The notes: generated by a model from the sequence alone, not told the origin. DNA of 64,000 nucleotides from Candidatus Multivoradales bacterium (GCA_965223325.1 CBDCWI010000002.1:3488850-3552849); one strand, 5' to 3'; positions 7,501-56,442 are shown, counted from the stretch's first letter. Program-made: numbers and translations.

Positions 7501-7798
7501 AGACGGTGTACCAGTTGTGGTCTCCGTCGACCAGCGCCACGTCACACGCCGGGAGACCGGGAAGGACGTCGTGGCTCGTGCCTCGGTGAAAAACGAGCGC
7601 CGGGCCCCACTCCTGCTGCCACTCGTCGACGTCGTACTTCGGCAGCGGGTCGATGACGTGCAGCGTTGCGGCGTTCTGGCGGCAGTATCCGAGCAGCTCC
7701 CGCGTTTGCAGACCGCCGTCAGAACCGATTTCAACCAGAACTTTGGGCGACGTCGCCTCGAGCAGCGGCTCGGTGACGGTCTTCCAGAACCTTCTCAT
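4556..7798 (-). CDS. Multidomain glycan synthase with five segments in one chain. Residues ~15-215: class I SAM-dependent (O-)methyltransferase-like domain. Residues ~232-385: coiled coil. Residues 396-406: (ST)n linker. Residues ~428-650: GT2 glycosyltransferase. Residues ~725-1070: GT4 glycosyltransferase. Domain labels rest on motif reading only.
   Basis: Methyltransferase-like N-terminus: VLVEIGSDGG...HVIDP...DVALVDGDH...LLHDVGWPYG. Coiled coil: a heptad-like charged stretch REAIIETIESERIRVEIGRQRERQRREQ...LQRQKRELEEYIDRHRLAARALRKVRREKSEY...LEQQLRAIYESRS. Linker: STSTSTSTSTA. GT2: VVVCVHNALEDV...YIVDDGSD...LLNSDVVV...GFCFMIRRELLDRIG...GEENDYCLRA. GT4: GRTGLEAMACGCAVIV...E-rich C-terminal block. 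The gene lies in the same locus as wzm/wzt. Confidence 0.85.
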   Translation of the reverse strand: MRRFWKTVTEPLLEATSPKVLVEIGSDGGLQTRELLGYCRQNAATLHVIDPLPKYDVDEWQQEWGPALVFHRGTSHDVLPGLPACDVALVDGDHNWYTVFHELRLLHEISQRAGVPFPVVLLHDVGWPYGRRDLYYEPDRIPELDRQPFARRGVHPDHPLLVDAGGLNGHLHHAAVEGGERNGVLTAVEDFLAGTQCDIRFRVVRGLHGLAVLLPEERLRTSPALAAFAERLDSRETREAIIETIESERIRVEIGRQRERQRREQMAADSKEIAVRDTDMRRILRQLADELASRREDERELRAALAAANEKLQRQKRELEEYIDRHRLAARALRKVRREKSEYSKAYERRKGKERRLEQQLRAIYESRSWLLIGKLRGLRNRVQGLFRPLSVAPASTSTSTSTSTATAPGPRVAPESIAGARSVDELTVDVVVCVHNALEDVTACLESLVRNTRRQYTLYIVDDGSDMETAEYLRGFATRHESQLLRSDRATGYTRAANRGLRASEADWVVLLNSDVVVPFGWLDRMVEAGASSGKLGVVGPLSNAASYQSVPKRFDEAGDWAVNELPEGLGVNGMDDVVKRASARARPRMPFLNGFCFMIRRELLDRIGLLDEESFPRGYGEENDYCLRARAEGFELAVVDDVFVFHAKSKSYSHERRRELASSSRQAFDEKHGAEVIKQASEFMRHNPEMAKVRARIQEALGRIDRAAPIAGAGVDPDPEAMSVLFILPVSRGGGGVHSIVQEALGMRALGAAARIAVPKQHRHWFLDNYPSVPADLFVGFQGIDELARLARQATHAVATIFTSVKLLEQLSRSFPDLGLGYYVQDYEPRIVAHDPNLEREARLSYSRVPRSQLFAKTDWIRAKVFEEHGVPVAKVTPSIDHSVYNPRGREPATGAVRVAAMLRPSTPRRNAEGTLEVLRAIAREYPSGVEVLTFGLPVDDPIYEAATDGTFERCGVMTREGVAGLLQRSDVFVDLSHYQAFGRTGLEAMACGCAVIVPKAGGASEYAIDGDTALVVDTADRSACLSALQRLVEDGDLRKLLAARGQRIAARFTIEAAAASELRVLGQQSRAAGRASA
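6585..6614. repeat. Hexanucleotide microsatellite (GTGGAT)n, about 4-5 units. It lies inside the synthase gene and encodes the (ST)n linker.
   Basis: Plus strand reads gtagat gtggat gtggat gtggat gtggat. The minus-strand reading ACATCC repeats gives TSTSTS. The repeat is in frame, since 6 is a multiple of 3. Confidence 0.85.
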
Positions 7799-7807
7799 GC
7801 CACGGTT

Positions 7808-9265
7808 CTACTCGACATAGCCGAGCGCCTCGAGTTCGCGGCGCTCCTCTTCGGAGTAGTCGCGTCCTGTATTGTCGCGGACCGTCACCGACGGCTTCCC
7901 CATTTCTTGATGGATGAACGCGAGGTCGCGCTTGAAAGCTGTTTCGAGATCTTGATCCCCTCCGGGGAGTCCCAGTAGTTGCTGACCATCCATGTGCGCC
8001 AGTTGTGAGGCATGGGGAACCTCATACTGGAAAATCACTTGCCGATCCTCGCGCAGCAGCGTGACTCCCGAAACCCAGGTCGGGTCGTGCCGAACATGCT
8101 CGGAGATCGCGAAAGGGGGATCTCCGTTGTCAGGGGTCGGTGGAGCCAGGAAGAGAGCCGTTTGGTCGACACCGTCGAGACCATCCGGAACTTCTATGTC
8201 GGCAAGGGTTCCGAGGGTGGGGAACAGATCGATCTGCTCGATGATGGTCTCCTCGAATCGCGGCCCGGCGCCCATGTTTCGAGCCCGAAGCGCCACGGGC
8301 AAGCGCACGACCAGGGGTATGCGCACGACTTCTTGGTGAAGTGAATGGCCGTGCGCCCAGCCACCGCGGTCATAGAGCTCTTCGCCGTGATCGGCCGTCA
8401 CGATGATCAGAAAGTCGTCGAACTGCCCGGCGTCCCGCAACGTTTCGAAGAGGTGCGCAACATGGTCACCGTCGAAATAGGCGAGTTCTGTGTCATAAAG
8501 CGCCCGCGCCTCTTCAATGTCAGCGGGAGTGAGATCGCTCCGCTTCTTGTAGGTGAGCACGCTGAAGTCGACCGTGCTGTCGGTCGTCGGAAAACGGTCC
8601 CGGTAATGCGCGGCCTTGCCCTTCTTGATCACGTAAGGGTCGTGCGGCCCGATGAAGTGAACGTAAGCGAAAACCTTGTCGGCTTCGTCGAGGTCGCTGA
8701 ACCACTTTCGAAAGTGGCGTGCCGCTGGCTTGAGGCGGCCGTAGACTTCGAACCCTCGGCCGAAGCCTTGTTGTTCCGAGATGTGCGAGTTTTCGACAAA
8801 GCCAGCGGTCCTCCAGCCCGCATCTGTGAACGCCTGGCCAAGGCTCGGCACGTCGCTCGGAAAGCTCACCGTGCGCTCCTCTTTCGTGCCATCAGGAAGC
8901 ACCATGTGCCGGCCGACGGTGACGCCGTGGTGGCGCGGGTAGAGCCCCGAAAAAAGCGAAGCGACCGAGGGCTTGGTCCAGTTCGCCTGGGCAAATGCGC
9001 GCGTAAAGACGACTCCCTCGGCTGCCAACGCGTCGATTGTCGGAGTGGTTGGCCGCGGATAGCCATACACGCCGAAGTGATCTGGCCGCGCGCAGTCGAT
9101 CGACACCAGGAGGATTTTCTCGACCGGGCTCTCGATTTGGGCAGCCGGCTCTACCATCCCCCGCCCTTCTCCCGCAGGCGGCGCCGGCGAGCAGGCCAGC
9201 GGGAGCGAGGCCATCGCAACCAACAGGCCAGTGGACCGCGGGCGGCTGAAGAAGCGGGGGATCAC
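7808..9265 (-). CDS. Sulfatase-family (alkaline-phosphatase superfamily) protein with N-terminal signal peptide. Paralog 2.
   Basis: GTG start at 9265 gives MIPRFFSRPRSTGLLVAMASLPLACS. The block KILLVSIDCARPDHFGVYGYPRPTTPTIDALAAEG is sulfatase-fold like. Overall architecture and length match paralog 1. The C-terminal tail ...RELEALGYVE is nearly identical to paralog 1. Confidence 0.7.
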   Translation of the reverse strand: MIPRFFSRPRSTGLLVAMASLPLACSPAPPAGEGRGMVEPAAQIESPVEKILLVSIDCARPDHFGVYGYPRPTTPTIDALAAEGVVFTRAFAQANWTKPSVASLFSGLYPRHHGVTVGRHMVLPDGTKEERTVSFPSDVPSLGQAFTDAGWRTAGFVENSHISEQQGFGRGFEVYGRLKPAARHFRKWFSDLDEADKVFAYVHFIGPHDPYVIKKGKAAHYRDRFPTTDSTVDFSVLTYKKRSDLTPADIEEARALYDTELAYFDGDHVAHLFETLRDAGQFDDFLIIVTADHGEELYDRGGWAHGHSLHQEVVRIPLVVRLPVALRARNMGAGPRFEETIIEQIDLFPTLGTLADIEVPDGLDGVDQTALFLAPPTPDNGDPPFAISEHVRHDPTWVSGVTLLREDRQVIFQYEVPHASQLAHMDGQQLLGLPGGDQDLETAFKRDLAFIHQEMGKPSVTVRDNTGRDYSEEERRELEALGYVE

Positions 9266-9348
9266 GGGGGTCCTATCGGGACGTTTGCCCGATGCATTGG
9301 GGGCGTCTTGACGGATTCTGGATGGAAGCAGCAGGGCCAGGACTGTGG

Positions 9349-10665
9349 CTAGCCAGCCGAAAGCAAGGAAAAATACTGCGCCGCCATGCTAGCGCAGTCC
9401 TCCAGTTCGATGCGCTGAACTCGCTCGACGCCAGTCAGCCACTTCTCCCGATTGCCAACAAGCGACTTGATCTGTGCAAGCACATCCTCAGGAGCCGTTG
9501 GGGATACCGTCCACCCTCCGCCGGTTTCGATGATGCGTTCACCGACCGCCCCACGATCACTGGCGAGCACGGGGACGCCGAGGGCTAAGACTTCTGTCAG
9601 TGTGTGGCTCCAGGTTTCGGACCAGATGGGGAGAAGAATCGCCAGGCTGGGCTGAATCCGCTCCACCAGCCCGGGAAGTTCTGTCGGCGCATAGGGCCCG
9701 TGCTCCACCATAACGCCATGGGCGGCGTAGCGGCTGAGCTCTTCACAGTGCGGGCCGAGGTGGTGAAGAACCAGCTTCGGGCCGCCGCGCAGGCTTTCCT
9801 CTAGAACCGCCGCCAACTCGTTGCTGCCCTTGTGTCGATCGAGCTTCCCTAGGGTCACGATCCGGATGGTCTCGCCCGCTACCGGTGGCGCCGCGAGATC
9901 GTGGCGCTCGAGATCGCGGCCATGCGGAATCCGGTGGATACGATCGGCGAGCGACGGCAGGCTGCGGGCAAGAATCTCTTGCGACGACCATGAGGTCACA
10001 ACAACCGCCGAAACCTGCGCGAGGGCTTCCTCTACTTCCTGGACCCACTGTGCCCGGTAGCCCGACTTGAGAACCGGCAACCCTTCGAGCCAGGGCACCG
10101 GAAGTTGGCACTGGCCTCGCCCTTCGGTGCACTGACCACCGCAATCCCTGGCCTGGTCGTCGAGCAATACGAAGCTCGGACACACCAGATAGTGGTCGTG
10201 GGCCGACACGACGACGCGCACCCCGCGCTCGGCGCACAGGTCGAGCAGGTCGAAGGTGTGCGCGAGCAGGTGCCTGAGGTGCACCGCGTTGGGCCTTGTG
10301 GCATCGAGAACCCCACGGTAGAGCTCGCGAAAATCGGCGCGGCGATGGTCCGTCGCCTGCCAGGGTCGTCGATGGTGGAAGGCTCGATCAACCGCGCGAC
10401 CCTTACTGTCGGAGCCTTCGAGGACCATGCGAAAGGGGTCGGCCCGCAACACTGAAGCGTCGAGTCTCGTTCCCAGTGCGGCCAACAGGTCGCGGCTGGT
10501 TCTGTCGACCCCACCCGGCGCATCGTGGAGAACGGTGAGCACGCGCAGCGCATCCTTCTCGGCCCCAACCATCTGTGGCCGGAAATCGCGCTCTCGGCCA
10601 AGGAGCGTCTCGCGCAGCCTGCGCGCAAAGCGGTGCCGGCGACTTCCCCAGGCGAGCAGGTCCAC
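9349..10665 (-). CDS. GT4-family (group 1) glycosyltransferase
   Basis: LRVLTVLHDAPGGVDR N-terminus. GT4-type C-terminal half (...LGPHCEELSRYAAHGVMVEHGPYAPTELPGLV..., E-x7-E-like region). The start may instead be ATG 10572 (MVGAEKDALRVLTVL). Confidence 0.75.
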   Translation of the reverse strand: MDLLAWGSRRHRFARRLRETLLGRERDFRPQMVGAEKDALRVLTVLHDAPGGVDRTSRDLLAALGTRLDASVLRADPFRMVLEGSDSKGRAVDRAFHHRRPWQATDHRRADFRELYRGVLDATRPNAVHLRHLLAHTFDLLDLCAERGVRVVVSAHDHYLVCPSFVLLDDQARDCGGQCTEGRGQCQLPVPWLEGLPVLKSGYRAQWVQEVEEALAQVSAVVVTSWSSQEILARSLPSLADRIHRIPHGRDLERHDLAAPPVAGETIRIVTLGKLDRHKGSNELAAVLEESLRGGPKLVLHHLGPHCEELSRYAAHGVMVEHGPYAPTELPGLVERIQPSLAILLPIWSETWSHTLTEVLALGVPVLASDRGAVGERIIETGGGWTVSPTAPEDVLAQIKSLVGNREKWLTGVERVQRIELEDCASMAAQYFSLLSAG

Positions 10666-10666
10666 G

Positions 10667-11512
10667 CTAGTGCCCGGAGAGTTGGGTCTGAAGGTGGGCG
10701 CGCAGCCCTGCGAGGGGGTCGGCTTCGAGGAACTGCGAGACGCTTCCCAGGTAGTCCGGGTGCCGCACTTTCAGGACCCTCAGGCCGCGCCACAACAACC
10801 AGCGCTTCTTCCAACCGATCGAGCGCGACCCATGGTGGAAGACATAGACCGAGTCAGCGAGGACATGACGCATCCCGAGCGCGGTCGCTCGCACGCAGAA
10901 ATCGTTCTCTTCGCCCGCACCCTCCGGAAACGCCTTCTCGTCAAAGCTACCCACTGCCGCGAGCGCCGCTCGGCGCACGAAGAGACAGAAGCCGTGGCCG
11001 GTGGGGACTTCGGGAGAAAGCCCTGGGCTCCACTTCGCCACCAACGCCGCCATGCGCGCGTCGTCTATCGAAATGTTCGGAGCCGGCCCGTCGTAGGGCA
11101 CCGAAAAGGGGCCGGCGTTGTTCGACAGCGGGGTGACGGTAGCGATCTTCGGATCGGTCGCAGCCACCGCAACGATTCCGGCCAGCCACCCCTTCGTTAC
11201 CCGAGTGTCGCTGTTGAGCAGCACCACATCGCGGTCGCGAGCGAGGGCGCATCCTGCATTGATGGTGGCGGTATAGCCACGCCGCTGCGGATGAATGTGG
11301 AGCGCCCAGCCTGGGTTGCGGCGCCTGGCTTCTTCGAGTTGTGGTCGCGTCGAGTCATCGCGGCTCGCATCGTCGATGAGAAGAACCTGCTCGCCCTCGG
11401 CATGGCGTTCGAGCGCAGCGATACACTCCGCCACAACCCCCGGGGCGCCGTGGACTGGTACGACCACCGTCGTGTTGGCTACAGATGGGCTGCCTGATGA
11501 ATCTGAGGGCAT
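10667..11512 (-). CDS. GT2-family glycosyltransferase
   Basis: ORF 10667..11941. I trimmed the start to ATG 11512 (MPSDSSGSPSVANTTVVVPVHGAP...) because the longer N-terminus overlaps wzm and is low-complexity. GT2 motifs: LLIDDASRD, LLNSDTRV, GHGFCLFVRRAAL, EENDFCVRA. Confidence 0.7.
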   Translation of the reverse strand: MPSDSSGSPSVANTTVVVPVHGAPGVVAECIAALERHAEGEQVLLIDDASRDDSTRPQLEEARRRNPGWALHIHPQRRGYTATINAGCALARDRDVVLLNSDTRVTKGWLAGIVAVAATDPKIATVTPLSNNAGPFSVPYDGPAPNISIDDARMAALVAKWSPGLSPEVPTGHGFCLFVRRAALAAVGSFDEKAFPEGAGEENDFCVRATALGMRHVLADSVYVFHHGSRSIGWKKRWLLWRGLRVLKVRHPDYLGSVSQFLEADPLAGLRAHLQTQLSGH

Positions 11513-11515
11513 GGA

Positions 11516-12274
11516 GTGCGCCGCCTCACCGACCTGATCCTCTACAAGACCTACGCTGACCTGAAGTCGGAGTCCGAGCGGACCTACGTCGGTTTCCTGT
11601 GGTGGGCTATCGAACCGGTCATCGCGATGGCGGTGTACTACGTGGTCTTCGAGCTGGTCTTCCAGCGCGACGTGCCCAACTATGTCACCTTCCTTTTCGT
11701 GGGTCTGGTGCCGTGGCGCTGGTTCAACACCAGCGTGATGCGCGGGGCGAATTCGATCATCGGCGCGCGGGGCCTGATCCAGCAGGTTTACGTGCCGAAG
11801 GTGGTCTTCCCGCTGACCAACTTCGTCGTCGACACCATCAAGTTCCTCGTCGTTCTCCTCTTGGTGTTGATCGTCGTTCGCGTCGGCGACTTTCCCATCG
11901 GTGCGCCGTACCTCGCGTTTCCCGTGTTGCTTCTGGTCCAAGGATTGTTTGTTGTGTCGCTAACCCTCCTCATCGCCGCAGTCGCTCCCTTTCTTCCAGA
12001 CGTTCGGATCGTGATCGAGAACGTCATGCGGCTCCTTTTCTTCCTCTCCGGCGTCTTCTACGACATCGGCGACATGTCCCCCCGCATGCAGGCCTGGTTT
12101 CGAATCAACCCGATGACGACCATCATCGAGGCTTACCGCGACATCCTCATGCACGACGAATGGCCGGCTTTCGGAGCGCTGGCTGTCATCACCGTCTTGT
12201 CGCTCATGATTCTGGCGCTTGCTGTCTGGCTGCTCCGGCGGCTCGACTTCGCCTACGCCAAGATCGCCCTCTAG
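11516..12274 (+). CDS. wzm: ABC-2 type polysaccharide export permease (Wzm-like)
   Basis: LILYKTYADLKSESERTYVGFLWWAIEPVIAMAVYYVVF matches the conserved Wzm N-terminal block. About six hydrophobic segments. GTG start. The ATP-binding partner follows immediately. Confidence 0.8.
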   Translation: MRRLTDLILYKTYADLKSESERTYVGFLWWAIEPVIAMAVYYVVFELVFQRDVPNYVTFLFVGLVPWRWFNTSVMRGANSIIGARGLIQQVYVPKVVFPLTNFVVDTIKFLVVLLLVLIVVRVGDFPIGAPYLAFPVLLLVQGLFVVSLTLLIAAVAPFLPDVRIVIENVMRLLFFLSGVFYDIGDMSPRMQAWFRINPMTTIIEAYRDILMHDEWPAFGALAVITVLSLMILALAVWLLRRLDFAYAKIAL

Positions 12275-15280: not shown

Positions 15281-16504
15281 TTAGCGGCTCAAATCTTGGC
15301 GGCTCAGATCTACTGGCTTGGGCCCAACGGCGGCAGCGGCCGCGAGACACTTACCGACCATCGCAGCAAGCGGAAGCGAAGCGAGGTCTTCTTCGCTCGC
15401 CCAAACGGCCTCGTAGGGAACCTCGGCGACATCAGATCCTCCCGTCGTCCTGTCGGCAGACCACACCGCGGTGCATATCTCGTAAGTGATCTTGTGATTG
15501 GTGATCGAGTGCCGGGCTTCTGGTAGCCGCCGTATCGTCTCGCTACCTTCGGAGCGCCCTACGGCGCAGAAGCTGAACTTGCCGCCAACCCGACGTGCGA
15601 GGCGTTCGGCTGTTTCCTCGCTCGGCCAGAGACGTTCGGCCGCGACCTCAACGTTGGGCAGCTCCCACATCCCCGCTGCGACGCCCTTCTGACGGCCCCC
15701 GCGAGCCGCCCGTTCCCGCGCTAGCAGGTACCGGCCGCTCTTGTCACGCACCAGAGCCACAACGCGACGCACGAGTTTGGGTTCCGCGCGCTGTGGGCGT
15801 AGCGGATACTGGTCCACCGCCCCGATCTCGAAGGCGCGGCAGTCCTCCTTCAGCGGACATCGCCCGCAACGCGCCTTCTTCGGCCGGCAGATGGTCGCCC
15901 CGAGCTCCATCATCGCCTGCACGCTGTCGCCAGAACGTTTCCGGTCCAGAAGCCCGGTCGCCACCTCCTCGATGACGCGGCGACCGACCGCGCGCTTGGG
16001 GTTCTCATCGAGCGCCACCAGTCGTGCGATGACACGCTCTACGTTCCCGTCGATCGCAGCGACTGGTTCGTTCCAGCAGATGCTGGCGACGGCAGCAGCG
16101 GTGTACGCACCGACGCCCGGCAGCTCGCGCAATACCGCAACGCTACGAGGAAAACCGCCGCGCGCCACCAACTCACGCGCCGCTGCATGAAGCATTCGCG
16201 CTCGACGGTAGTAGCCGAGGCCCGACCACTCCGTCAGCACGTCGTCTTCAGTTGCCGTCGCCAGCGCGGCGGGATCGGGAAAGCGCTTCATGAACGATTC
16301 GAAGCGTTCGATCACGACTTCGACGCGCGTTTGTTGGAGCATCACTTCGGATACAAGAACCGGCCATGGTTCTCGCGACGCGCGCCACGGAAGTTCGCGT
16401 TGGTGCTTCAGGTACCAAGTGAGAAGCTTGGCGCTACTAGCGTCGACTCGCTTGTTCAAACCCGTCGATACTCCTCGCAACGTGATCTCTGACGGTCGTG
16501 ACAA
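15281..16504 (-). CDS. mutY: A/G-specific adenine DNA glycosylase
   Basis: LTWYLKHQRELPWRASREPWPVLVSEVMLQQTRVEVVIERFESFMKRFP...LGYYRRARMLHAAAR aligns closely with the MutY N-terminus. There is a HhH-GPD region, a 4Fe-4S Cys cluster C-x6-C-x2-C-x5-C (ICRPKKARCGRCPLKEDC), and a NUDIX-like C-terminal domain. There is no ATG at the 5' end, so the exact TTG or GTG start is uncertain. Confidence 0.85.
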   Translation of the reverse strand: MSRPSEITLRGVSTGLNKRVDASSAKLLTWYLKHQRELPWRASREPWPVLVSEVMLQQTRVEVVIERFESFMKRFPDPAALATATEDDVLTEWSGLGYYRRARMLHAAARELVARGGFPRSVAVLRELPGVGAYTAAAVASICWNEPVAAIDGNVERVIARLVALDENPKRAVGRRVIEEVATGLLDRKRSGDSVQAMMELGATICRPKKARCGRCPLKEDCRAFEIGAVDQYPLRPQRAEPKLVRRVVALVRDKSGRYLLARERAARGGRQKGVAAGMWELPNVEVAAERLWPSEETAERLARRVGGKFSFCAVGRSEGSETIRRLPEARHSITNHKITYEICTAVWSADRTTGGSDVAEVPYEAVWASEEDLASLPLAAMVGKCLAAAAAVGPKPVDLSRQDLSR

Positions 16505-16725
16505 GTCGACCCGCGGCCATCCTTGCGCACCCGCAAACTTTTTTTTGCTGACTCGGATCGCGTAAGTTTCCGTGCTGCGTCACCTTACGCCGAACGACAA
16601 GTGCACCTGGGATAATTTCTCTCTTCAAGACGTTCCCACGCCGTGCATCGCGTGGTATGTTGCCCCTCCTTCGCGGCGCATCCATTGATTCAGTTTGGGG
16701 AGTCGGTAGGTAACCGACAAAATCG

Positions 16726-16758
16726 TTTTTCCGCATTGAGGAAAACTCTGTGGAAAAA
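16726..16758. promoter_or_regulatory. DnaA-box-like 9-mers upstream of dnaA: TTTTCCGCA at 16727-16735 and TGTGGAAAA at 16749-16757
   Basis: These are 7/9 and 8/9 matches to TTATCCACA / TGTGGATAA. A T8 run at 16539-16546 is the most AT-rich spot in the mutY-dnaA spacer. Confidence 0.35.
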
Positions 16759-16774
16759 GACAGGTGGGGTGTAC

Positions 16775-18085
16775 ATGGCTGATTCGACGTGGATTGACCT
16801 CCTCGAGGTCATCCAGGACGAAGTACCTGCAGACGAGTTCAAGACGTGGTTTCGGCCCCTGGCCGTTGAGCACGAAGACCCGAACCGGTTGATCGTTCGA
16901 ACTCCCAGTCGACGCTTTCGCAACGTGCTCGAAGAAAGCTACCGACCGCTGGTCAACCGCGCGATTGCGGGTGTCAAGGGCCAGGCCTACGAGGTCTTGT
17001 TCTCGGTCCAGGAAGAGCCGGAACGGCGCAGTGCCGCACGGCCGAGAAGCCGAAAGGCACATGCACCGACGACCCGCTTCAACTCCAAGTACAGCTTTGA
17101 ATCGTTCGTGGTCGGTTCGTCCAATCAGTTTGCCCACGCCGCGGCGCGAGCCGTCGCAGAGAGTCCCGGTCAAAGCTACAACCCGCTCTTTCTCTACGGC
17201 GGAGTAGGACTCGGCAAGACTCACCTCCTGCACGCTGCGGGACAGGAAGTGCTGCGACGCAACCCTGGCACGCGCATTCTGTACCTGCCGGCCGAACAGT
17301 TCGTCAACGAGCTGATCAACTCGATCCGCTTTGACCGCATGCCGAAGTTCCGCGATCGCTATCGCACGATCGACGTTCTCCTGCTCGACGATGTGCAGTT
17401 CCTGGCCAACAAGGAACGTACCCAGGAAGAGTTCTTCCATACCTTCAACACGCTCTATACGAGCCAGAAGCAGATCATCCTGTCTTCGGACTCGTCGCCA
17501 CGGGACATCCCGATGCTCGAGGAGCGGCTGCGAAGTCGCTTCGAGTGGGGCTTGATCGCCGACATTCAATCTCCCGATCTGGAAACTCGAGTCGCGATCC
17601 TGCGCCGCAAGGCCGATCTGGATGGCATCGAGATGCCGCATGACCTGGCCTTGTTCATCGCCCAGCAGGTGCGCAGCAACATCCGTGAGCTCGAGGGATT
17701 GCTCAATCGGGTCGTTGCTTTCGCGTCTCTGACCGGTCGCAAGATCGATATCGAGCTGGCGCGAGAGACCTTGAAGGACATCCTGCCGCAGACCGATCAC
17801 CGAGTCACTGCCGCCAACGTCATCAAGACCGTTGCGCATCACTATGGCTTGAAGGTGCGCGAGATCAAGAGCAAGAACAACTCTCGCCAGATCGCCTTTC
17901 CGCGTCAGGTGGCGATGTTCCTGTGCAAGCGCCTCACCGACCTTTCCTTCCCGGAGATCGGTCGGCAGTTCAACGACAAGCACCACTCGACGGTGATGTA
18001 TTCGGTCGAGAAGATCGAAAAGCTGCGACAGGAAGACCGTGACCTCGACCGCACGCTCGAGCGCCTGACGCGGCAACTCGCCTAG
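16775..18085 (+). CDS. dnaA: Chromosomal replication initiator protein DnaA
   Basis: ORF 16643..18085. I trimmed it to ATG 16775, which is preceded by AGGTGGGG. Walker [12 protein letters not shown]. Domain IV signature [46 protein letters not shown]. Confidence 0.95.
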
Positions 18086-18424
18086 CTCGCGCCACCCGAA
18101 GGTGATCTCGCCAACCCTCGCTGCTGCCGGGGCCGCCCAACCCTTGAGGCTGGGCCGCGCCTCAGCGCATCCACCGCCGCGGTAAAGGTGGTGGAAAGCC
18201 TGTTGATAAAAGGGTCGGGCTGCGGAGGGCCTCAGCAATCCACATTCCTTCCGCATTTCATCCGCTCGTTCTCCGCAGGCTCTCCGCTGCCGGGTAAACA
18301 GTTCGCCCCTCGCTCAACTCACTCAGCCGGCGGTTCTTGCAGGATCGCTCCGAACTCTCCACCGCACCTACTCCTCCTACTACGACTACCTATATAGTCC
18401 CGTTCACTGAAAGGAGAGGGACCC
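18086..18424. other. dnaA-dnaN intergenic region, candidate oriC or part of it
   Basis: TGTTGATAA at 18201-18209 (8/9 to TGTGGATAA). CAATCCACA at 18236-18244 (7/9 to TTATCCACA). CATCCACCG at ~18169. A short AT-richer patch ctacctatatag near 18388-18399. The position between dnaA and dnaN is the classical oriC site in many bacteria. Confidence 0.35.
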
Positions 18425-20933: not shown

Positions 20934-23555
<2,622 letters not shown>

Positions 23556-23558
<3 letters not shown>

Positions 23559-23584
23559 TTCTTGTGGTGAAACCACAAGAATCA
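23556..23584 (+). terminator. Perfect 13-bp-stem hairpin overlapping the gyrB stop codon: tgattcttgtggt-gaa-accacaagaatca
   Basis: The two arms are exact reverse complements. The downstream sequence atatgtcttt is only weakly U-rich. The 3' arm is also the first 13 nt of repeat copy 1. Confidence 0.4.
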
Positions 23585-23763
23585 GATATGTCTTTCCCCC
23601 CCAGCCCCCGAATGGGGGGCCCGGAGTTCACTTCGTCGCGCCTTCTTTTGGTGGTGAGTCCTTGAATGTTTGATGGGTTCCAAGTTCGTTCGGCGTGCAA
23701 CCACAAGAATCAGATGCGTCTTTCCCCCCCAGCCCCTATAAGGGGGCCCGGAGTTCACTTCGT
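23571..23763 (+). repeat. Two copies (23571-23636 and 23698-23763) of a ~66-bp element, each with an internal C-run/G-run hairpin. A third accacaag seed lies at ~23797.
   Basis: Copy 1: aaccacaagaatcagatatgtctttcccccccagcccccgaatggggggcccggagttcacttcgt. Copy 2: caaccacaagaatcagatgcgtctttcccccccagcccctataagggggcccggagttcacttcgt. Period 127 bp. The copies differ mainly in the hairpin loop (gaat versus tataa). The shadow ORFs 23518..23706 and 23582..23803 share EVNSGPP.RG.GGK because of this repeat. Confidence 0.8.
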
Positions 23764-23811
23764 GGCCACCCATCAGAACCCTCTTTCCCACCACCTTGAC
23801 CACAAGCCCTT

Positions 23812-26367
23812 ATGAGCGAATCTGACGCTAAGGATCCTTCGGGATCGCCCCCACCTGAACCTCCCCTCGAGACGACGATCCCTGTCGATCTCGAGGATGA
23901 GATGAAGCGTAGTTATCTCGACTATGCGATGTCGGTCATCGTCGGTCGGGCGTTGCCTGATGTGCGCGATGGGTTGAAGCCGGTTCATCGCCGGGTGCTG
24001 TTCGGTATGTGGGAGCAGGGCAATCTGGCGAATCGGCCGTACAAGAAGTCGGCGCGCATCGTTGGTGATGTCATGGGTAAGTACCACCCGCATGGCGACA
24101 ACGCGATCTACGACACGGTGGTGCGTATGGCGCAAGACTTCTCGCTGCGCTATCCGATGGTCGATGGGCAGGGCAACTTCGGGTCGGTGGACGGTGACAA
24201 CCCGGCGGCTATGCGCTACACCGAAGTGCGCATGACGCGCCTGGCGCAGGAGCTTCTGCGCGAGGACATCGACAAAGAGACCGTCGACTGGATTCCGAAC
24301 TACGACGGCTCGGAGCAGGAGCCCGCGGTTCTGCCGGCGCGCTTTCCGAGCCTCCTGGTCAATGGGTCGGCGGGTATTGCGGTGGGCATGGCCACCAACA
24401 TTCCGCCCCACAACCTCACCGAAGTCATTGCGGCGCTCAAGTTGATGATCGAGAACCCGCAGGTGACGCTCAAGGAGTTGATGGAGGCTCTGCCGGGGCC
24501 CGACTTTCCGACCGGCGGCACGATCAGCGGTGCGGCGGGTATTCAGAGCGCCTACGCCACCGGTCGCGGCACGGTGATCATTCGCTCGAAGGCGCACTTC
24601 GAGGAGCGGAAGGGCGACCGGGAGTCGATCGTCGTCACCGAGATCCCCTACCAGGTCAACAAGGCGCGCCTGATCGAGAAGATCGCCGACCTGGTGCGCG
24701 ACAAGCGCATCGAGGGCATCTCCGACCTGCGCGACGAGTCAGACCGCGATGGCATGCGCATCGTCATCGAGCTCAAGCGTGGTGTGATCGCCGATGTCAT
24801 CCTCAACCAGCTCTACAAGATGAGCCAGCTGCAGGTCTCGTTCGGCATGAACATGTTGGCGATCGTCGACGGCCAGCCCAAGCTGCTTGCCTTGCCAGAC
24901 TTCTTGCGGCACTTCCTCGACCACCGCAAGACGGTGGTCATTCGGCGGGCACGCTACGACCTTAGAAGAGCCGAGGAGCGCGCCCACATCTTGGAAGGGC
25001 TGCTCAAGGCGCTCGACCACATCGACGAGATCATCACCACGATTCGCCAGAGCGCCACTCCGCCCGAGGCCAAGGAAAGCCTCATCGAGCAGTTCGCGTT
25101 CAGCGCGGTTCAGGCGCAGGCGATTCTCGAAATGCGTTTGCAGCGCCTGACCGGTCTCGAGCGCGATAAGTTGCTCGAGGAGTTCCAGACCCTTATGGCC
25201 GAGATCGAGCGACTACGCGCCATTCTCGGATCCGACCAGCTGGTGCTCGAGGAGATCAGCCGCGAGCTCGACGAGATCCTCGAGGCCTACGGCGACGAAC
25301 GGCGATCCGAGATCGTTGCGACGACCGACGAGATCACCATCGAAGACATGATCGCCGACGAAGACATGGTGGTCACGGTCTCGAACTCGGGCTATATCAA
25401 GCGCACGGCGCTCTCCGAGTACCGCGCCCAGGGGCGCGGTGGCAAGGGTCGCAAGGGCATGCAAACCAGGGATGAGGACTTCGTCGCCCACGTCTTTGTC
25501 GCTTCGGCGCACAGCTACCTCCTCGTGATTACCGACCGCGGTCAGATCTACTGGCTCAAGGTCCATCGCATTCCCGAGGTCGGGCCGGCGGCGCGCGGCA
25601 AGGCGATCGTCAACCTGCTGCAGCTCGACGAGGAGAAGCTCGCTGCCGTCGTCGCGGTCAAGGAGTTTCCCGAAGATCGCTACCTCGTGTTTGCGACCGA
25701 GAAAGGCACGATCAAGAAGACCCCGCTCTCGGCCTACTCGCGACCGCGCCCGAGTGGAATCATCGCCATCCGCATTGACGACGACGACTCGCTTCTCAGC
25801 GTGCGCGTAGCCGATGGAGGTACCGACGTCTTCATGGCCACTGCGGCAGGCTACTCGGTGCGTTTCCCCGAAGACGACACCCGCGCCATGGGCCGCGTCG
25901 CGCGGGGTGTGCGCGGCATCAAGCTGCGCGAAGGCGACCGGGTGGTGTCGATGGAGGTGCTCGAGGCCGAGGGCGACATTCTGACCGTTACCGAGAACGG
26001 TTACGGAAAGCGCACCCTCATGAGCGAGTACCGGCGCCAGGGTCGTGGTGGCCTGGGAATCATCAACCTCAAGGTCTCCGAAAAGACCGGGCAGGTTGTT
26101 GGCGCACGACAGGTCCTCGAGGAACAAGGCGCCATGCTGATCACCGAGGAAGGAAAGATCATTCGCATTACCGCGAGCGACGTTTCGAGGATCGGGCGCT
26201 CGACCCAGGGCGTCAAGGTCATGGACCTCGATGAGGGCGACACCCTGGTGGCGATGGCGAAGATTCCGGAGACCGAAGACGAAAACGAGGAAGGTTCTTC
26301 CGAGGAGCGTGCTTCCGAGGAGGGCGCGCCAGACGCTCCCAACGAGCCCGACGAACCGGTCAACTAG
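23812..26367 (+). CDS. gyrA: DNA gyrase subunit A
   Basis: The QRDR-region block [20 protein letters not shown], the active-site Tyr context ([10 protein letters not shown]) and the C-terminal beta-pinwheel repeats are present. Confidence 0.95.
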
Positions 26368-26458
26368 CGGCGCCTTGGCGCTCCCGGCCAGCCTGAGGCC
26401 CTGATACCCTCGGCTCCGTTCCTCCCATGTCCAGACAACCGAAGGAGACGGAGACCAA

Positions 26459-31562: not shown

Positions 31563-32638
31563 CCACTCCGCGCATTCTCGGCGTGGCGCACGCGTTGCCC
31601 GAGCACTACTACGACCAGGAAACGCTTCTCGCCCGTCTCGAAAAGGAATGGCAGGCGAAACACTACAACCCCGATCGACTACGCCGCTTGCATGAAAACG
31701 TTCTGGTGGGCGGCCGCCATTTGGCACTACCGATTGAGCGTTACGACGCGCTCTCAGGCTTCGGTGCCACCAACGATGCCTGGATCGAAGCGGCGTTGGC
31801 GCTCGGCGAGCGAGCTGTCACCGCCGCTCTCGAGGAAGCCGCGGTTTCAGTGGGCGAGGTTTCGGCAATGTTCTTCGTGTCCGTCACCGGCCTGGCGACT
31901 CCGTCGCTCGACGCCCGCCTGATGAACCGGATCGCCTTCAAACCGGACCTCAAGCGTATCCCGATCTTCGGCCTCGGCTGCCTCGCCGGTGCGGCGGGAA
32001 CCGCGCGCGCCAGCGAGTACGTGCGCGCCTTTCCAGGCGAAGTCGCGGTTCTGCTCTCGGTCGAACTGTGTTCGCTGACCCTGCAGCGCGAAGACCTTTC
32101 GATTCCCAACCTGATTGCGAGCGGCCTGTTCGGCGACGGTGCAGCGGCAGTGGTGCTGGGCGGAGAGAATCGTGCAAGTTCAGAGCACCCGTTAGTCGTC
32201 GACACGGCGTCTTCGTTCTACCGTGACACCGAAGGGGTGATGGGCTGGCAGATCAGCGAGCGCGGTTTTCAAGTGGTGCTGTCGGCCGAGGTTCCGAAGA
32301 TGGTCGACACCCACCTTCGTCGCGACGTCGATGCGTTTCTCGCTCGCCACGGCTTGACCGTTGCGGAGATCGAGCACTGGGTTTGTCACCCCGGTGGACC
32401 GAAGGTTCTAGAAGCCATGGCGCGGACCCTCGAGTTGCCCGCCGCCGCCCTGGAGCGCACCTGGCGTTCGCTACGCGAAGTCGGCAACCTGTCTTCGACC
32501 TCGGTGCTCCTGGTACTTGAAGAAACCCTGCGCGAGGGAGCGGCTCGCCCGGGAGACCACGGCGTGATGCTTGCCATGGGGCCAGGGTTCTCTTCCGAGC
32601 TGGTCCTGCTTCGATGGCCCGGGGAAGAATCGCGATGA
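31544..32638 (+). CDS. Type III polyketide synthase (chalcone/stilbene synthase superfamily)
   Basis: Catalytic Cys in FGLGCLAGAAG, His in HWVCHPGGPKVL, Asn in VGNLSSTSVLLVL. About 360 aa. GTG start at 31544 or 31559, overlapping the HAD stop. Confidence 0.9.
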   Translation: MAGEAVTTPRILGVAHALPEHYYDQETLLARLEKEWQAKHYNPDRLRRLHENVLVGGRHLALPIERYDALSGFGATNDAWIEAALALGERAVTAALEEAAVSVGEVSAMFFVSVTGLATPSLDARLMNRIAFKPDLKRIPIFGLGCLAGAAGTARASEYVRAFPGEVAVLLSVELCSLTLQREDLSIPNLIASGLFGDGAAAVVLGGENRASSEHPLVVDTASSFYRDTEGVMGWQISERGFQVVLSAEVPKMVDTHLRRDVDAFLARHGLTVAEIEHWVCHPGGPKVLEAMARTLELPAAALERTWRSLREVGNLSSTSVLLVLEETLREGAARPGDHGVMLAMGPGFSSELVLLRWPGEESR

Positions 32639-33204
32639 GCGCCTCACAAGTCCTCTTCCTGGCGCTCACGGGCCTTGTAGCCATCGAGCGCCTCGTCGAA
32701 CTACGCGTTTCGACCAAGAACGCACGCCGCGCCCTGGCGCAGGGGGCGGTTGAAACTGGCCGGGGCCACTACCCCTTCATGGTGGCCATGCACACCGCGT
32801 TTCTCGTTGCCGCGCCCCTAGAGGTCCTGCTCCTCGACCGTCCCTTCAGCCCGCTTCCCGCCGCGTTGATGGTAACGCTGGTTCTCCTGGCGCAGGCTCT
32901 GCGCTGGTGGACGATTCACACCCTGGGCGATCGCTGGACGACGCGCATCATCTGCCGCCCGGGGGACCGGGTGGTCAAAGGCGGCCCATTCCGTTTCCTG
33001 CGCCACCCCAACTACCTGGCGGTGGTGATCGAGATGCTCGCACTGCCAATGGTGCACAACGCATTCGTCACGGCGATTCTCTTCTTTGTCCTCAACGGTC
33101 TGGTGTTGCGCGCTCGCGTGGCTGCCGAAGAGGAGGCGCTGGGGCGCCTCACCGATTGGGACTCGGTTTTCAGTGCCGGTCGCGAGCGCGGTAGGGCACA
33201 ATGA
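32614..33204 (+). CDS. Membrane methyltransferase of the isoprenylcysteine carboxyl methyltransferase (ICMT) / phospholipid methyltransferase family
   Basis: RHPNYLAVVIEMLALP and the EE...L C-terminal motif. About five TM segments. The start is probably ATG 32635, giving an ATGA overlap with the PKS stop. Confidence 0.8.
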   Translation: MARGRIAMSASQVLFLALTGLVAIERLVELRVSTKNARRALAQGAVETGRGHYPFMVAMHTAFLVAAPLEVLLLDRPFSPLPAALMVTLVLLAQALRWWTIHTLGDRWTTRIICRPGDRVVKGGPFRFLRHPNYLAVVIEMLALPMVHNAFVTAILFFVLNGLVLRARVAAEEEALGRLTDWDSVFSAGRERGRAQ

Positions 33205-33503
33205 CCGAGGAAACCCGTCGCAGAGCGACCGTATGCGAGATCCTGTCCCTTGCCGCTGAGCTGGTTCCGGGCCAGGTAGCGACCGATCTCGAAGAACGAA
33301 TGGAACGCGGTTTACCCTCCGAGGATCTGCGCGTGGTTGAAGACCTCGGCCTCGACTCCGTCACGCTCCTGACCCTCGCTGTCGAGGTCGAAGATCATTT
33401 CAAGGTCTGCCTCGACGCCGATGACGAGGAGGCCATCGTGACCCTCGGCGATCTCGCCGACATAGTCTTGAGAAGAAAGTCTTCGACCGGCACCACTCTC
33501 TGA
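33201..33503 (+). CDS. Acyl carrier protein (phosphopantetheine-binding)
   Basis: LGLDSVTLLTL matches the DSL-type phosphopantetheine attachment site. About 100 aa, acidic. ATGA overlap with the upstream gene. Confidence 0.75.
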   Translation: MTEETRRRATVCEILSLAAELVPGQVATDLEERMERGLPSEDLRVVEDLGLDSVTLLTLAVEVEDHFKVCLDADDEEAIVTLGDLADIVLRRKSSTGTTL

Positions 33504-33509
33504 GGCCCC

Positions 33510-35363
33510 ATGACCATCTCCCGAACACTGACCGCTGCCCTCTATGACGCGGGCCGTTCGCAACGCGGCGCCGAGACCGGCTTGCGCTTTCTCGATCGTC
33601 ACGAGCGCGAAGAACTGGTTACCTGGAACGAAATCTGGAAGCGCGCCCGCGCCTTGCAACAGGCGCTTGCGGGAGAGGGCGGGGCGACCGGGCAGGCCGG
33701 GGTGGTGCCCGGCCAGCGCATCGCGATCATCTACCCGACCGTGCCAGGCTTCTTCGACGCCTTTTTAGGTGTCTTGATGGCCGGGGCGATTCCGGTGCCG
33801 CTTTATCCGCCCGTGCGCCTGGGGCGCCTTGACGAGTACCACCGCCGGACCGCACGGATGCTTGATCTGGTCGATGCCACGGGTGTCTTGGCCGACACCG
33901 GTGTGGCACGCCTTCTCGGCGAGACGCTGGCAGCAAGTGCAGCCCGGCCCTGGCTCTTGACGCCACGTGACCTGCGGCCGGTGTCAACTGCCCGCGACAC
34001 GGAGTCCGGCGCCCCACGCTGGCCGCCGCCGATCCATGCCGATGGTGGTGGGTTGGCGATGGTTCAGTTCTCCTCGGGGACGACGCGCGAGCCCAAGCCG
34101 GTGGCGCTCAGCCACCGGGCGGTTCTCGCTCAGGCCCGCATGCTGGCGAGTCATTTTCCAGACGGCGGCCGAGGAGGAGACGCTGGGCGCACCCAGAGCG
34201 GCGTCAGCTGGCTGCCGCTCTACCACGACATGGGTTTGATCGGCTGCGTGTTCACAGCCCTGGTGCGTGCTGCCGACCTCACCCTTTTGCCACCCGAAGC
34301 GTTCCTCGCCCGTCCGGCGCTCTGGCTGCGGGCGATCTCGAAGGCTCGCGCCACCGTTTCGCCGGCGCCAAACTTCGCCTACTCACTGTGTGTCGATCGC
34401 ATTCGCGACGAAGAGCTCGAGGGAGTCGATCTGTCGTCCTGGCAGGTGGCGCTCAACGGTGCCGAAGCGGTCACGCCAGGGGTCTTGCGTCGCTTCAGCG
34501 AGCGCTTTGGCGCCTGGGGCTTCAGGGCCGAAGCTCTAACGCCGGTCTATGGCCTCGCCGAGGCTTCGCTAGCGGTGACGTTTTCTCCCCCCGAGGAGCG
34601 CTTCTTGATCGAACGTTTCGACCAACAGCAACTCGAAACGCGGGGGCTTGCCGAACCGCTTGCGGCGGGCTCGGAAGAGTCGGCGGTCGAGCTGGTCTCG
34701 GTTGGTCGCCCCGTGCCGGGCTTCGACCTCGAGATTCGAAGCGAAGAAGGCAGGCAGCTGCCCGAGGGTGAGGTCGGCGAGATCTACACGCGCGGCCCGT
34801 CGCTCATGGCTGGCTACCTGGGAATGCCCGAAGAGACCGAGCAGGCGCTCGAAGACGGCTGGCTGCGAACAGGGGATGAAGGCTTCGTCTTTGGCGGCGA
34901 CCTCTATGTCACCGGCCGCACCCAGGACCTGGTGATCGTTCGTGGTCGCAACCACTCTCCCGAGCTCATCGAAGAGGCTGCTTCGCGGGTCCCGGGTGTG
35001 CGCACGGGGTGTGTCGTTGCGGCCGGTCATCGCTTCGAGGCGCAGGCGACCGAGTCGCTCGTGGTCTTTGCCGAGCGTGCGCGCGGCGAACGTCCGGTTG
35101 ACGCCCTGATCGAGAGCGGCGTTCGAGGCGAGGTGCTTTCTGCGGTGGGGCTCGAACCCGGCGAGGTGATTCTGCTCGAGCCCGGCGTACTGCCGCGGAC
35201 GTCGTCGGGCAAGCTCCGGCGCCGAGAGGCCCTCAAGCAACACCTCCAGGGGCAGCTCGAGGCGCGGCCCGGCCTGTCGCCGGTGCGGCTGGCGCTTGCT
35301 TTGTGGCGTTCGGCGCGCGCTCGCCGAATTCTGTCCCGAAGCCTGCCGCGCGAGCGCTCGTGA
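33510..35363 (+). CDS. Fatty acyl-AMP ligase / acyl-CoA synthetase-like adenylating enzyme
   Basis: AMP-binding motifs VQFSSGTTREPK, YGLAEAS, TGD...GR and the SGK of the A10 region (PRTSSGKLRRRE). An insertion typical of FAAL-type enzymes. Confidence 0.85.
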   Translation: MTISRTLTAALYDAGRSQRGAETGLRFLDRHEREELVTWNEIWKRARALQQALAGEGGATGQAGVVPGQRIAIIYPTVPGFFDAFLGVLMAGAIPVPLYPPVRLGRLDEYHRRTARMLDLVDATGVLADTGVARLLGETLAASAARPWLLTPRDLRPVSTARDTESGAPRWPPPIHADGGGLAMVQFSSGTTREPKPVALSHRAVLAQARMLASHFPDGGRGGDAGRTQSGVSWLPLYHDMGLIGCVFTALVRAADLTLLPPEAFLARPALWLRAISKARATVSPAPNFAYSLCVDRIRDEELEGVDLSSWQVALNGAEAVTPGVLRRFSERFGAWGFRAEALTPVYGLAEASLAVTFSPPEERFLIERFDQQQLETRGLAEPLAAGSEESAVELVSVGRPVPGFDLEIRSEEGRQLPEGEVGEIYTRGPSLMAGYLGMPEETEQALEDGWLRTGDEGFVFGGDLYVTGRTQDLVIVRGRNHSPELIEEAASRVPGVRTGCVVAAGHRFEAQATESLVVFAERARGERPVDALIESGVRGEVLSAVGLEPGEVILLEPGVLPRTSSGKLRRREALKQHLQGQLEARPGLSPVRLALALWRSARARRILSRSLPRERS

Positions 35364-36619
35364 CCACAGCGGCCAGCGGCCCGCAGGTGGTGGTGGTGGG
35401 CGCTGGACCAACCGGCCTGGCTGTGGCCATTGGTCTTGCGCGCTCAGGAGTTCGCGTTCGGGTTCTCGAGCGCCGGCGCCTGGCCGAACCGGGCGCTGGC
35501 CTCGACAAGCCCTGCGGCGAGGGGTTGATGCCCGACGCGGTGGCTCATCTCGAGCAACTGGGCGTCGATCTACGGCGGTTACCCAGGGCGCCGTTCGGGG
35601 GCATTCGATGGTTCGATACCGAATCGGGCGCGTCGGTCGAAGGGCGCTTTCCCGGGGGGCCGGGCCTGGGCGTCCGGCGAACGGTGCTCTATCGTGCGCT
35701 GATTGAGCGGGCGCAAGAAGTGGGCGTCGGGGTTTCGTACGGCGAACGAGGCGTGCGGTTGATCGAGCAGAGCCCGAACCGTTATGCGTTGGTGACCGAC
35801 GCGCGGCGGTACGAGCCGGCGGCGATCGTGGGCGCCGATGGCCTACGCTCGCGGCTGCGAAGCGATGCGGGTCTCCTGGGGCGATCTCGTTTCCAGACAG
35901 AGCGATTTGGAATCAGGCAGCACTTCAGCCTGCCGCAGCCATGGTCGAAGAAAGCCCGACCGGCGGTCGAAGTGTTCTGGGCCGACCGGGCCGAGGCCTA
36001 CGTAACACCGGTCGGGCCGTCTGAGATCGGCATCGCATTGCTGTTCGAGAAGGCGGCACCCGGAGCGGCGCCAACTACGGGCGAACCACCCTTTCAGCGT
36101 CACATGGCGCGTTTCCCGGCCCTTGTCAAAAGGCTCGAAGGTGCCACCCCGGTGTCGAAAGCGCTCGGGACCGGACCGCTGGCCCAATCCGCCCGTGCGG
36201 TGGCCGTACGCAATCTGTTCCTGGTTGGAGATGCTGCCGGCTATGTCGACGCCATCACCGGCGAAGGCCTGGCGGTTGGTTTCGGGGAAGCGCATCACCT
36301 GGCCGGCTGCTTGGCACCGCTGGCTGGTTGTTCAAGCAATGCGCATGAGATCATTGCCGGCGCCCGTCGCGAGTACCCGGTGCACTCGCGGCGAACTCGC
36401 AGGCGCCCCGAGCTCCTGACGCATGCCGCCCTCCGTTTGTCGCGCTCGCGCAGGCTTCGGCGTAGCGTCATCCGCGGCCTGGCTCGCCGGCCTGTCGCCT
36501 TTGACCGGATCCTGGCGCTGCACGTTGGCGAAGGAAAACCATCGGACGCGCTCGGAGAGCTCCTCCCCATCGTCCCCACGCTTGCCCTCGCCCTGTTGCG
36601 GCGACGCTCGCGGAGCTGA
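35303..36619 (+). CDS. FAD-dependent monooxygenase (aromatic-ring hydroxylase type)
   Basis: Probable GTG start at 35360 (GTGA overlap with the upstream stop). GxGxxG VVVVGAGPTGLAVAIGLARSG. GD motif LVGDAAGYVDAITGEGL. Confidence 0.8.
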   Translation: MAFGARSPNSVPKPAARALVTTAASGPQVVVVGAGPTGLAVAIGLARSGVRVRVLERRRLAEPGAGLDKPCGEGLMPDAVAHLEQLGVDLRRLPRAPFGGIRWFDTESGASVEGRFPGGPGLGVRRTVLYRALIERAQEVGVGVSYGERGVRLIEQSPNRYALVTDARRYEPAAIVGADGLRSRLRSDAGLLGRSRFQTERFGIRQHFSLPQPWSKKARPAVEVFWADRAEAYVTPVGPSEIGIALLFEKAAPGAAPTTGEPPFQRHMARFPALVKRLEGATPVSKALGTGPLAQSARAVAVRNLFLVGDAAGYVDAITGEGLAVGFGEAHHLAGCLAPLAGCSSNAHEIIAGARREYPVHSRRTRRRPELLTHAALRLSRSRRLRRSVIRGLARRPVAFDRILALHVGEGKPSDALGELLPIVPTLALALLRRRSRS

Positions 36620-56438: not shown

Positions 56439-56442
56439 CTGG

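Follow-up and report, generated by a model that had tools for sequence, protein, structure and literature searches.

A candidate intergenic repeat with a hairpin around the gyrB stop codon separates gyrB from gyrA in an Acidobacteriota-type lineage

The unusual spacer between gyrB and gyrA in the 64-kb stretch of DNA analysed here (the window) is best explained as a lineage-specific insertion of a non-coding repeat of ~140 nt, which belongs to a clade-restricted dispersed family and is present as one full copy and a 5'-truncated local duplicate; we put the probability of this reading at roughly 0.6. A related copy lies behind a different gene, dnaN, in a sister lineage, which argues for an intergenic repeat rather than a gyrase-specific switch. 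As judged from the sequences compared, the element, with its hairpin that embeds the stop codon and its apparent ATCTGA target, is a candidate for an undescribed, clade-restricted intergenic repeat, and the copy between gyrB and gyrA does not appear to be a gyrase-specific control element. The two genes of an essential enzyme, tightly coupled in relatives, have thus been moved apart by a small repeat that also encloses the upstream stop codon in a very stable hairpin, an arrangement that the lineage tolerates.

A perfect palindrome takes in the gyrB stop codon

The window comes from the core chromosome of an uncultured Acidobacteriota-type bacterium; among named organisms, its GyrA is closest to those of Acidobacteriota and Thermoanaerobaculia MAGs. 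It contains the dnaA-dnaN-recF-gyrB-gyrA cluster, flanked by polysaccharide, amino-acid and ruvAB/mreB genes. From the gene call on a 98.4% identical contig (L001), where Pfam recovers the domains HATPase_c, DNA_gyraseB, Toprim and GyrB_C, gyrB extends over 21069-23558 on the plus strand and ends with TGA at 23556-23558. The coding sequence of gyrA (23812-26367, plus strand) begins with the ATG at 23812, 253 nt beyond the gyrB stop; its product is identical to a database protein encoded on a 4.55-Mb contig.

Inverted-repeat search and folding define a perfect 18-bp palindrome, P1, at 23551-23589 (plus strand), which is the longest perfect hairpin of the 64-kb window. Its left arm, ATATCTGATTCTTGTGGT (23551-23568), contains the gyrB stop codon, its right arm is ACCACAAGAATCAGATAT (23572-23589), and the two are joined by a GAA loop (23569-23571). 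A preliminary description of this region had reported a perfect palindrome overlapping the gyrB stop; the palindrome is indeed there, with arms of 18 nt and not the 13 bp claimed. Relative to dinucleotide shuffles the hairpin is exceptionally stable, both as RNA (-26.6 kcal/mol, z = -8.1) and as DNA (-17.9, z = -9.4), and, at 33% GC, its stem is AT-rich as well as unusually long. Downstream of it the window has GTCTTTCC, with 4 T in 8, and so narrowly misses the consensus scan for terminators. Elsewhere in the spacer, the plus strand is not structured beyond the level of shuffles (z of +0.5 and +0.15). A SECIS-like reading, with the UGA inside a hairpin, was discarded, as the read-through products are not conserved between copies.

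Repeat units within the spacer

Two 70-nt units, 23567-23636 and 23695-23763, form a direct repeat with 63 of 71 aligned columns identical (89%), and its three sub-blocks are found nowhere else in the window. The repeat of ~66 bp that had been described as recurring 127 bp downstream is therefore real, with a start-to-start distance of 128 nt. Each unit had also been credited with its own C7/G6-type hairpin, and the units had been called structured. The loops do differ (GAATG versus ATA/TATAA) and one stem pair is compensated, C-G to T-A; the hairpins themselves do not exceed the stability of shuffles with matching composition on the plus strand (z = -0.9 and -0.9 as RNA, -0.4 and -0.4 as DNA), and reach z = -2.1 and -1.4 as minus-strand RNA, so that folding of both strands does not bear out the structured character of the units.

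The spacer ends in a pyrimidine-rich tail before the gyrA ATG (23764-23811, plus strand). It holds a degenerate start of a third unit, ATCAGAACCCTCTTTCCCACC at 23772-23792, which is weak and of marginal significance (17/21 matches, p = 0.014), and the 8-mer ACCACAAG at 23799-23806 on the same strand, the third seed that had been noted just before the gyrA ATG. All four occurrences of this 8-mer in the window fall within the gyrB-gyrA spacer. Other candidate relationships were rejected: the first tail (23638-94) is not a decayed unit (p = 0.85) or the inverse of the second tail (p = 0.12), and alignment gives no significant backing to an origin of the spacer by duplication of the gyrB 3' end (p = 0.02-0.08). 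Nor does the spacer look like a DnaA-box cluster or replication origin, since TTATCCACA-like boxes are not enriched and ACCACAAG matches a box poorly. Around dnaA itself we found no canonical DnaA-box cluster, and the origin is not obvious in the window (16343-16771, 18083-18424), where single one-mismatch DnaA boxes occur at 16749 and 18201.

Tight coupling of gyrB and gyrA in relatives

We compared the gyrA neighbourhoods of eight relatives, all sampled within the dnaA-gyrA cluster. The contig L001 carries this spacer too, altered by a single substitution and by an additional C that lengthens the C-run to C8, and the 253-nt spacing is confined to the window and L001 among the relatives compared. 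At 77-80% GyrA identity the junctions are different: in L022 the stop of gyrB and the start of gyrA share one nucleotide (TGATG), in L002 they are separated by 1 nt, in L003 and L018 by 3 nt, and the distance is 37 nt in L020, 95 nt in L021 and 130 nt in L019. Because four of these relatives overlap or are separated by only 1-3 nt, the window spacer is, on this comparison, a recent and lineage-specific insertion, and the tightly coupled pair would be the ancestral state.

In L019 the 130-nt spacer may represent a third, decayed copy of the element. It resembles copy 1, copy 2 and the element of L002 (described below) with p = 0.010, 0.012 and 0.038, respectively, and at 2871-3000 it carries, in order, blocks common to the element (ATCGAT..CCTTCCCCC..CACTTCGT..CCCATCTGAGCCC..GTCGCGCC). 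The closest sampled relatives of L019 have a 3-nt spacer. If the L019 spacer is a true homologue, either the same junction was struck independently or the element was lost several times. No similarity of this kind was found in the L021 spacer.

Between the window and L001 the 253 nt of the spacer differ by one substitution and one homopolymer indel, and third codon positions of gyrB and gyrA show 4.2% change. This is not decisive for purifying selection on the spacer, as the first 750 nt of gyrA are equally invariant. Elsewhere the two contigs diverge unevenly. The spacer between gyrA and tal (26368-26458) has 10 differences in 91 nt, and the acidic C-terminal tail at the gyrA 3' end (26286-26367) has a 5-codon indel (851 aa in the window, 846 aa in L001) in a region with a 15-nt tandem repeat. 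A stretch of ~4.3 kb (32060-36366) holds a single difference, with none from 33310 onwards, and the remaining 18 kb is ~1.9% different; this near-invariance suggests a recent recombination tract or sweep. To the left of dnaA (window 1-12000), a polysaccharide/sulfatase/glycosyltransferase cluster is strongly diverged from its counterpart in L023, which is otherwise 98% identical: identity falls to 50% for the sulfatase and to 77-91% for blocks of DNA. An ISL3-family transposase lies in the diverged cluster of the L001 contig (L023 11484-12845).

A homologous element behind dnaN in the sister lineage

The strongest evidence on the nature of the spacer comes from L002, the sister lineage of the window in the GyrA tree. 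Among 176 intergenic chunks of the relatives, the top match to the window spacer is the dnaN-recF spacer of L002 (z = 5.8). The matching element there is ~133 nt long (1884-2016) and directly follows dnaN. Its local alignment with copy 1 scores 34.5 against 16.5 +/- 2.7 for dinucleotide shuffles, none of which scored as high in 1000 trials. It opens with a perfect 18-bp palindrome, ATCTGAAACGTCCGTGGT gtg ACCACGGACGTTTCAGAT (1884-1922), in which the final codon and stop of dnaN, ATC TGA (...MPMRI*), supply the first six bases. After the palindrome come GT-TCTTTCCCCC, a CCCC/GGGG hairpin, ACTTCGTC, GCGCC, GTTCGTTC and GGCGTGC. The L002 hairpin followed by GTTCTTTC passes the consensus scan for terminators.

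Pattern search finds the same ordered series of seven blocks in the window at 23553-23699 and in the L002 element. The full-length copy of the window (copy 1, delimited by the alignment to L002) covers ~141 nt 3' of ATCTGA, at 23559-23699 on the plus strand. It contains TCAGAT (23582-87), GTCTTTCCCCCCC (23590-23602), the C/G hairpin (23604-23620), ACTTCGTC (23630-37), GCGCC (23638-42), a copy-specific stretch of ~41 nt (23643-83), GTTCGTTC (23684-91) and finally GGCGTGC (23692-98). Conserved features of the two independent copies thus include a G-TCTTTCCCCC tract directly after the hairpin and a short stem, GCGCC/GGCGT, near the 3' end, and the family is described by the pattern GTGGTNNNACCACN{5,7}TCAGATN{1,3}TCTTTCC. 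Within the palindrome the outer ATCTGA/TCAGAT and the inner GTGGT/ACCAC are conserved and the middle is variable. All 18 pairs are formed in both lineages, with nine changed on both sides and none changed on one.

The second copy in the window is partial (copy 2, 23695-23763, plus strand). It is recognised by its identity to copy 1 and aligns to the L002 element with p = 0.001. It opens in the loop (GTGCA ACCAC...), carries the same variable stem segment, AAGAA, as copy 1, and has neither the left arm nor an adjacent ATCTGA; it is read most simply as a 5'-truncated local duplicate of copy 1. It nevertheless carries TCAGAT, which indicates that TCAGAT is part of the element and not of its flank.

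Each site is empty in the other lineage. In the window, dnaN ends CGC ATC TGA and is followed by an unrelated spacer of 88 nt; in L002, gyrB ends GAC ATC TGA and gyrA starts 1 nt later. In both independent copies the element begins directly after ATCTGA, and the empty sites retain this hexamer. The shared blocks and the reciprocal empty sites point to a true unit of ~140 nt, the unit of the preliminary description plus the next ~60 nt, inserted directly 3' of ATCTGA. ATC TGA at 23553-23558, the last codon and stop of gyrB, would then be the target hexamer.

This correspondence bears on two other explanations. The spacer could have been built up purely locally, through slippage, duplication and template switching, with the resemblance to L002 being convergence or low-complexity noise. 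Template switching can create perfect palindromes, copy 2 does look like a local duplicate of copy 1, and searches of ~100 kb found no other copies. Against this, the L002 match lies far outside the shuffles and outside the 175 other control chunks, the hairpin architecture is common to both lineages along with the seven ordered blocks, and the likeness to the gyrB 3' end that local duplication might have left falls short of significance; we regard an entirely local origin as very unlikely. The least probable of the readings we considered is a gyrase-specific, supercoiling-responsive device, in which the inverted repeat extrudes as a cruciform or forms an attenuator and so tunes the gyrB:gyrA ratio. 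A perfect inverted repeat with a 3-nt spacer favours cruciform extrusion, and this one sits between two gyrase genes. However, the junctions of the relatives (1-nt overlap, 1, 3, 3, 37, 95 and 130 nt) lack the element, with a possible decayed copy and the only, weak similarity in the 130 nt of L019, so that a gyrase leader or attenuator is not conserved; the homologous element of L002 is at dnaN-recF; and scans of the window copy found no promoter or canonical terminator. A gyrase-specific attenuator or regulator site had been among the functions proposed in the preliminary description, which named conservation in close relatives among its tests. With tight coupling as the apparent ancestral state that conservation is missing, and the proposal does not hold up.

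Several observations on L002 stand apart from the element. gyrB is called as two ORFs there (3473-5999), as it is in L018 (546-2997); the L002 contig is a low-coverage (2x) long-read contig, and its split gyrB is probably a frameshift error and not a real split. At the end of the contig (L024 22108-22233) there is a weak Pfam match to Y2_Tnp, an IS91-type rolling-circle transposase fragment, with no link to the element.

Copy number and distribution

Two clear independent loci, gyrB in the window and dnaN in L002, and one decayed candidate in L019 make up the known distribution, which is confined to the dnaA-dnaN-recF-gyrB-gyrA cluster. Neither profile (nhmmer) nor covariance-model searches detected another copy, whether in the remainder of the 64-kb window, in an additional ~15 kb from the L001 contig or across 22 kb of L002 contig sequence, which implies that the family is not dense. 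At about one non-ascertained locus per 100 kb, the sampled density would fit a genome with just a handful of copies, one with a few hundred, or any number in between. ATCTGA closes only two or three real genes in the window, of which one is occupied; a third gene end with ATCTGA (L024 15749-15754) is unoccupied.

Database searches agreed with the statement in the preliminary description that this is not a known element. Rfam has no match in the whole window, with just generic hairpin (miRNA-model) noise at E <= 10 and E <= 1, and plasmid and phage blastn returned no match to the element. No element matches were found in the GTDB-representative and JGI collections either, a result of little weight because the probe segments vary between the known copies. 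With such variable segments as probes, a genome_contigs scan with GGGCCCGGAGTTCACTTC gave 8 matches and a metagenome_contigs scan with ACCACAAGAATCAGATNNGTC gave 5, all of which have unrelated flanks and are due to chance. In viral contigs, one family pattern found nothing and a second had 4 matches, again by chance, and a six-frame translation of the spacer retrieved nothing at E <= 10 from 5.8 billion proteins.

The distribution invites the suggestion that the replication cluster (dnaN, gyrB) has a cis-regulatory element of its own, at the RNA or DNA level, whose stop-codon hairpin controls the following cistron (recF, gyrA), through attenuation or protein binding for instance. Every one of the two or three occurrences is inside the cluster, the hairpin is perfectly kept in two lineages, and two identical right arms (I1, I2) are available to the left arm for pairing. 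Such co-location is expected, however, when relatives are sampled in the cluster only, and the restriction to the cluster may be a sampling bias of this kind. The position of the element differs between sister lineages, with reciprocal empty sites, four relatives do without any spacer, nothing beyond P1 is structured above shuffle level, and there is no Rfam family. These points make a cluster-specific role unlikely, and a dispersed insertion is preferred.

Possible consequences for gyrA expression

Comparison of the regions upstream of dnaN, recF, gyrB and gyrA revealed no Shine-Dalgarno-like purine run ahead of the gyrA ATG; dnaN and recF have a purine-rich ribosome-binding site. A sigma-70 consensus scan found no sigma-70-like promoter for gyrA in the spacer, and TATAAG in the loop of unit 2 was rejected as a gyrA promoter because it has no -35 partner.

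One way to restore gyrB-gyrA coupling across the insertion would be a translational relay of the MIRU type, in which small ORFs lead from an AUG in the 3' foot of the hairpin to the downstream start codon. The window has an ORF at 23588-23665 whose TGA is followed by an ATG at 23666, and this second ORF ends at 23815 with a stop overlapping the gyrA ATG (ATGA). In L001 an ORF ending on ATGA is kept despite the extra C (C8), and in L002 an ORF at 1921-2100 overlaps the recF ATG. The lack of a purine-rich site at gyrA, unlike dnaN and recF, would also fit a relay, and MIRU ORFs have been described as overlapping adjacent genes (PMC3184786). Dinucleotide shuffling of the spacers, though, yields such ORFs in 33% of cases for the window and in 28% for L002, a joint probability of 0.09, and the conserved CTTTCCCC block is read in three different frames by the three copies, with no conserved peptide. 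We therefore consider a relay improbable.

If the spacer is an inserted repeat, as we prefer, its hairpin may act in the mRNA. A stem-loop of -27 kcal/mol placed on the stop codon and followed by a U/C-rich tail could serve as a leaky intrinsic terminator, a 3'-end stabiliser or an obstacle to ribosomes. It would break the tight gyrB-gyrA coupling seen in relatives, as intercistronic repeats of the REP, ERIC and SPRITE type do. Since gyrA is essential, and its upstream spacer offers neither a Shine-Dalgarno-like sequence nor a detectable promoter, read-through must be substantial; for this reason a leaky terminator, stabiliser or ribosome obstacle is favoured over a full stop.

A proposed route of insertion

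The arrangement at gyrB and dnaN suggests how the hairpin may come about. An element that brings its own TCAGAT, placed at the end of its 5' part, would enter 3' of ATCTGA, whereupon the last codon and stop of the gene would become the outer 6 bp of the 18-bp hairpin. The element would be mobile now or would have been so formerly, with a choice of target tied to the complementarity of ATCTGA and TCAGAT. The middle of the stem, variable in sequence, could be kept complementary by templated (quasi-palindrome) correction or by strong selection.

It is tempting to go further and to imagine a self-targeting, or guided, miniature mobile element. Its TCAGAT would pair with ATCTGA in single-stranded DNA or RNA and home to sites 3' of Ile-TGA stops, a putative HUH or RNA-guided recombinase would mobilise it in trans, and the hairpin, kept perfect by templated correction, would act as an expression brake on the upstream gene. 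We offer this extension as a doubtful though conceivable one. Were it true, this would be a small mobile element whose specificity for gene ends is defined by base pairs. Much depends on the hexamer: should ATCTGA specificity extend genome-wide, a compact non-coding element would choose gene ends by complementarity to the last sense codon and stop, and would provide a natural tool for operon polarity in Acidobacteriota, a phylum for which hardly any repeat families have been described; should it fail, the element would be one more uncharacterised intergenic repeat.

Comparison with known repeat systems

Small intercistronic repeats are well documented in bacteria, among them MIRU, REP and SPRITE, as are stem-loops derived from IS200/IS605 at the 3' ends of genes, with compensatory changes and with examples of IS-derived stem-loops in Borrelia (PMC3184786). 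By analogy, the element resembles in function SPRITE, MIRU, REP/BIME and the IS200/IS605-derived 3'-end stem-loops. Like the repeat family of PMC3184786, it is ~100-150 nt long, lies downstream of genes, has a predicted structure similar to an intrinsic terminator and would probably act at the RNA level; unlike that family, to which it has no sequence relationship and which belongs to another phylum, its hairpin takes in the stop codon and a fixed flanking hexamer. With MIRU it shares the intercistronic position in operons, an orientation matching that of the genes, the occasional tandem arrangement, filled and empty sites among relatives, and ORFs touching the flanking genes (PMC3184786). MIRUs, however, are 40-100 bp long with tetranucleotide direct repeats and have no long perfect stop-codon hairpin, and the relay ORFs of the window and L002 are not beyond chance level (28-33% of shuffles).

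Among the options raised in the preliminary description, REP-like is the closest: the element is apparently a dispersed intergenic repeat, while the defining features of REPs and MITEs are absent. Its likeness to the REP/BIME elements of enterobacteria and pseudomonads, which are RAYT-associated, is that of an intergenic palindromic repeat in transcribed intercistronic regions. Work by Newbury (1987) and by Liang, Rudd and Deutscher (2015) is said to have found that REPs can stabilise upstream mRNA and hinder the terminating ribosome near the stop codon. REPs are imperfect palindromes of 21-65 bp with a GTAG head and usually hundreds of copies, whereas the element is ~140 nt long, only its first 39 nt (23551-23589) are palindromic, and this palindrome is perfect and lacks GTAG. 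Its sampled density is low compared with REP/REPIN, with one locus in ~80 kb of the window lineage, and the window contains no transposase, Y1 included. As for MITEs, the ends of copy 1 (TTCTTGTGGT... and ...GGCGTGCA) are not complementary and thus do not form terminal inverted repeats; the sole match spanning the whole spacer is the 8-bp CTTGTGGT/ACCACAAG. No direct repeat that could represent a target-site duplication flanks copy 1, copy 2 or the L002 copy.

The ends of IS200/IS605 elements and PATEs offer a closer parallel in some respects. Insertion 3' of a short fixed sequence, in one orientation and with no target duplication, is common to both, as are a left-end hairpin, a second stem near the right end (here GCGCC/GGCGT) and a compensatory stem change. 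In IS608-type elements, by contrast, the target tetranucleotide is outside the hairpin and is recognised through non-canonical contacts, and the target of the present element would be Watson-Crick paired inside a perfect stem. PATEs have similar subterminal imperfect hairpins that are recognised by Y1, but the 5' hairpin of the element is perfect and includes the target, and its 3' stem is different; a further difference from IS200/IS605 is that no Y1 transposase is within reach of the window element. The pairing also recalls the P1 helix of group I introns, whose 5' arm joins the last 6 nt of the upstream flank to the start of the insert, with an internal complementary guide as the 3' arm. 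The analogy is architectural only: the element has no ribozyme core, splits no gene and finds no Rfam intron match even at E <= 10.

A second repeat in the window, separate from the element, also measures 140 nt. It is a direct repeat (56440-56579 and 56709-56848) with 95% identity and copies 269 nt apart, each of which encodes a similar hydrophobic peptide of ~45 aa (ASWFYGLWVATGEWKAVQLGAWA..FGAPLPRRQ.PITLAAQA) with no Pfam match. This repeat may be a tandem small-gene pair between a MacB-like permease and ruvB.
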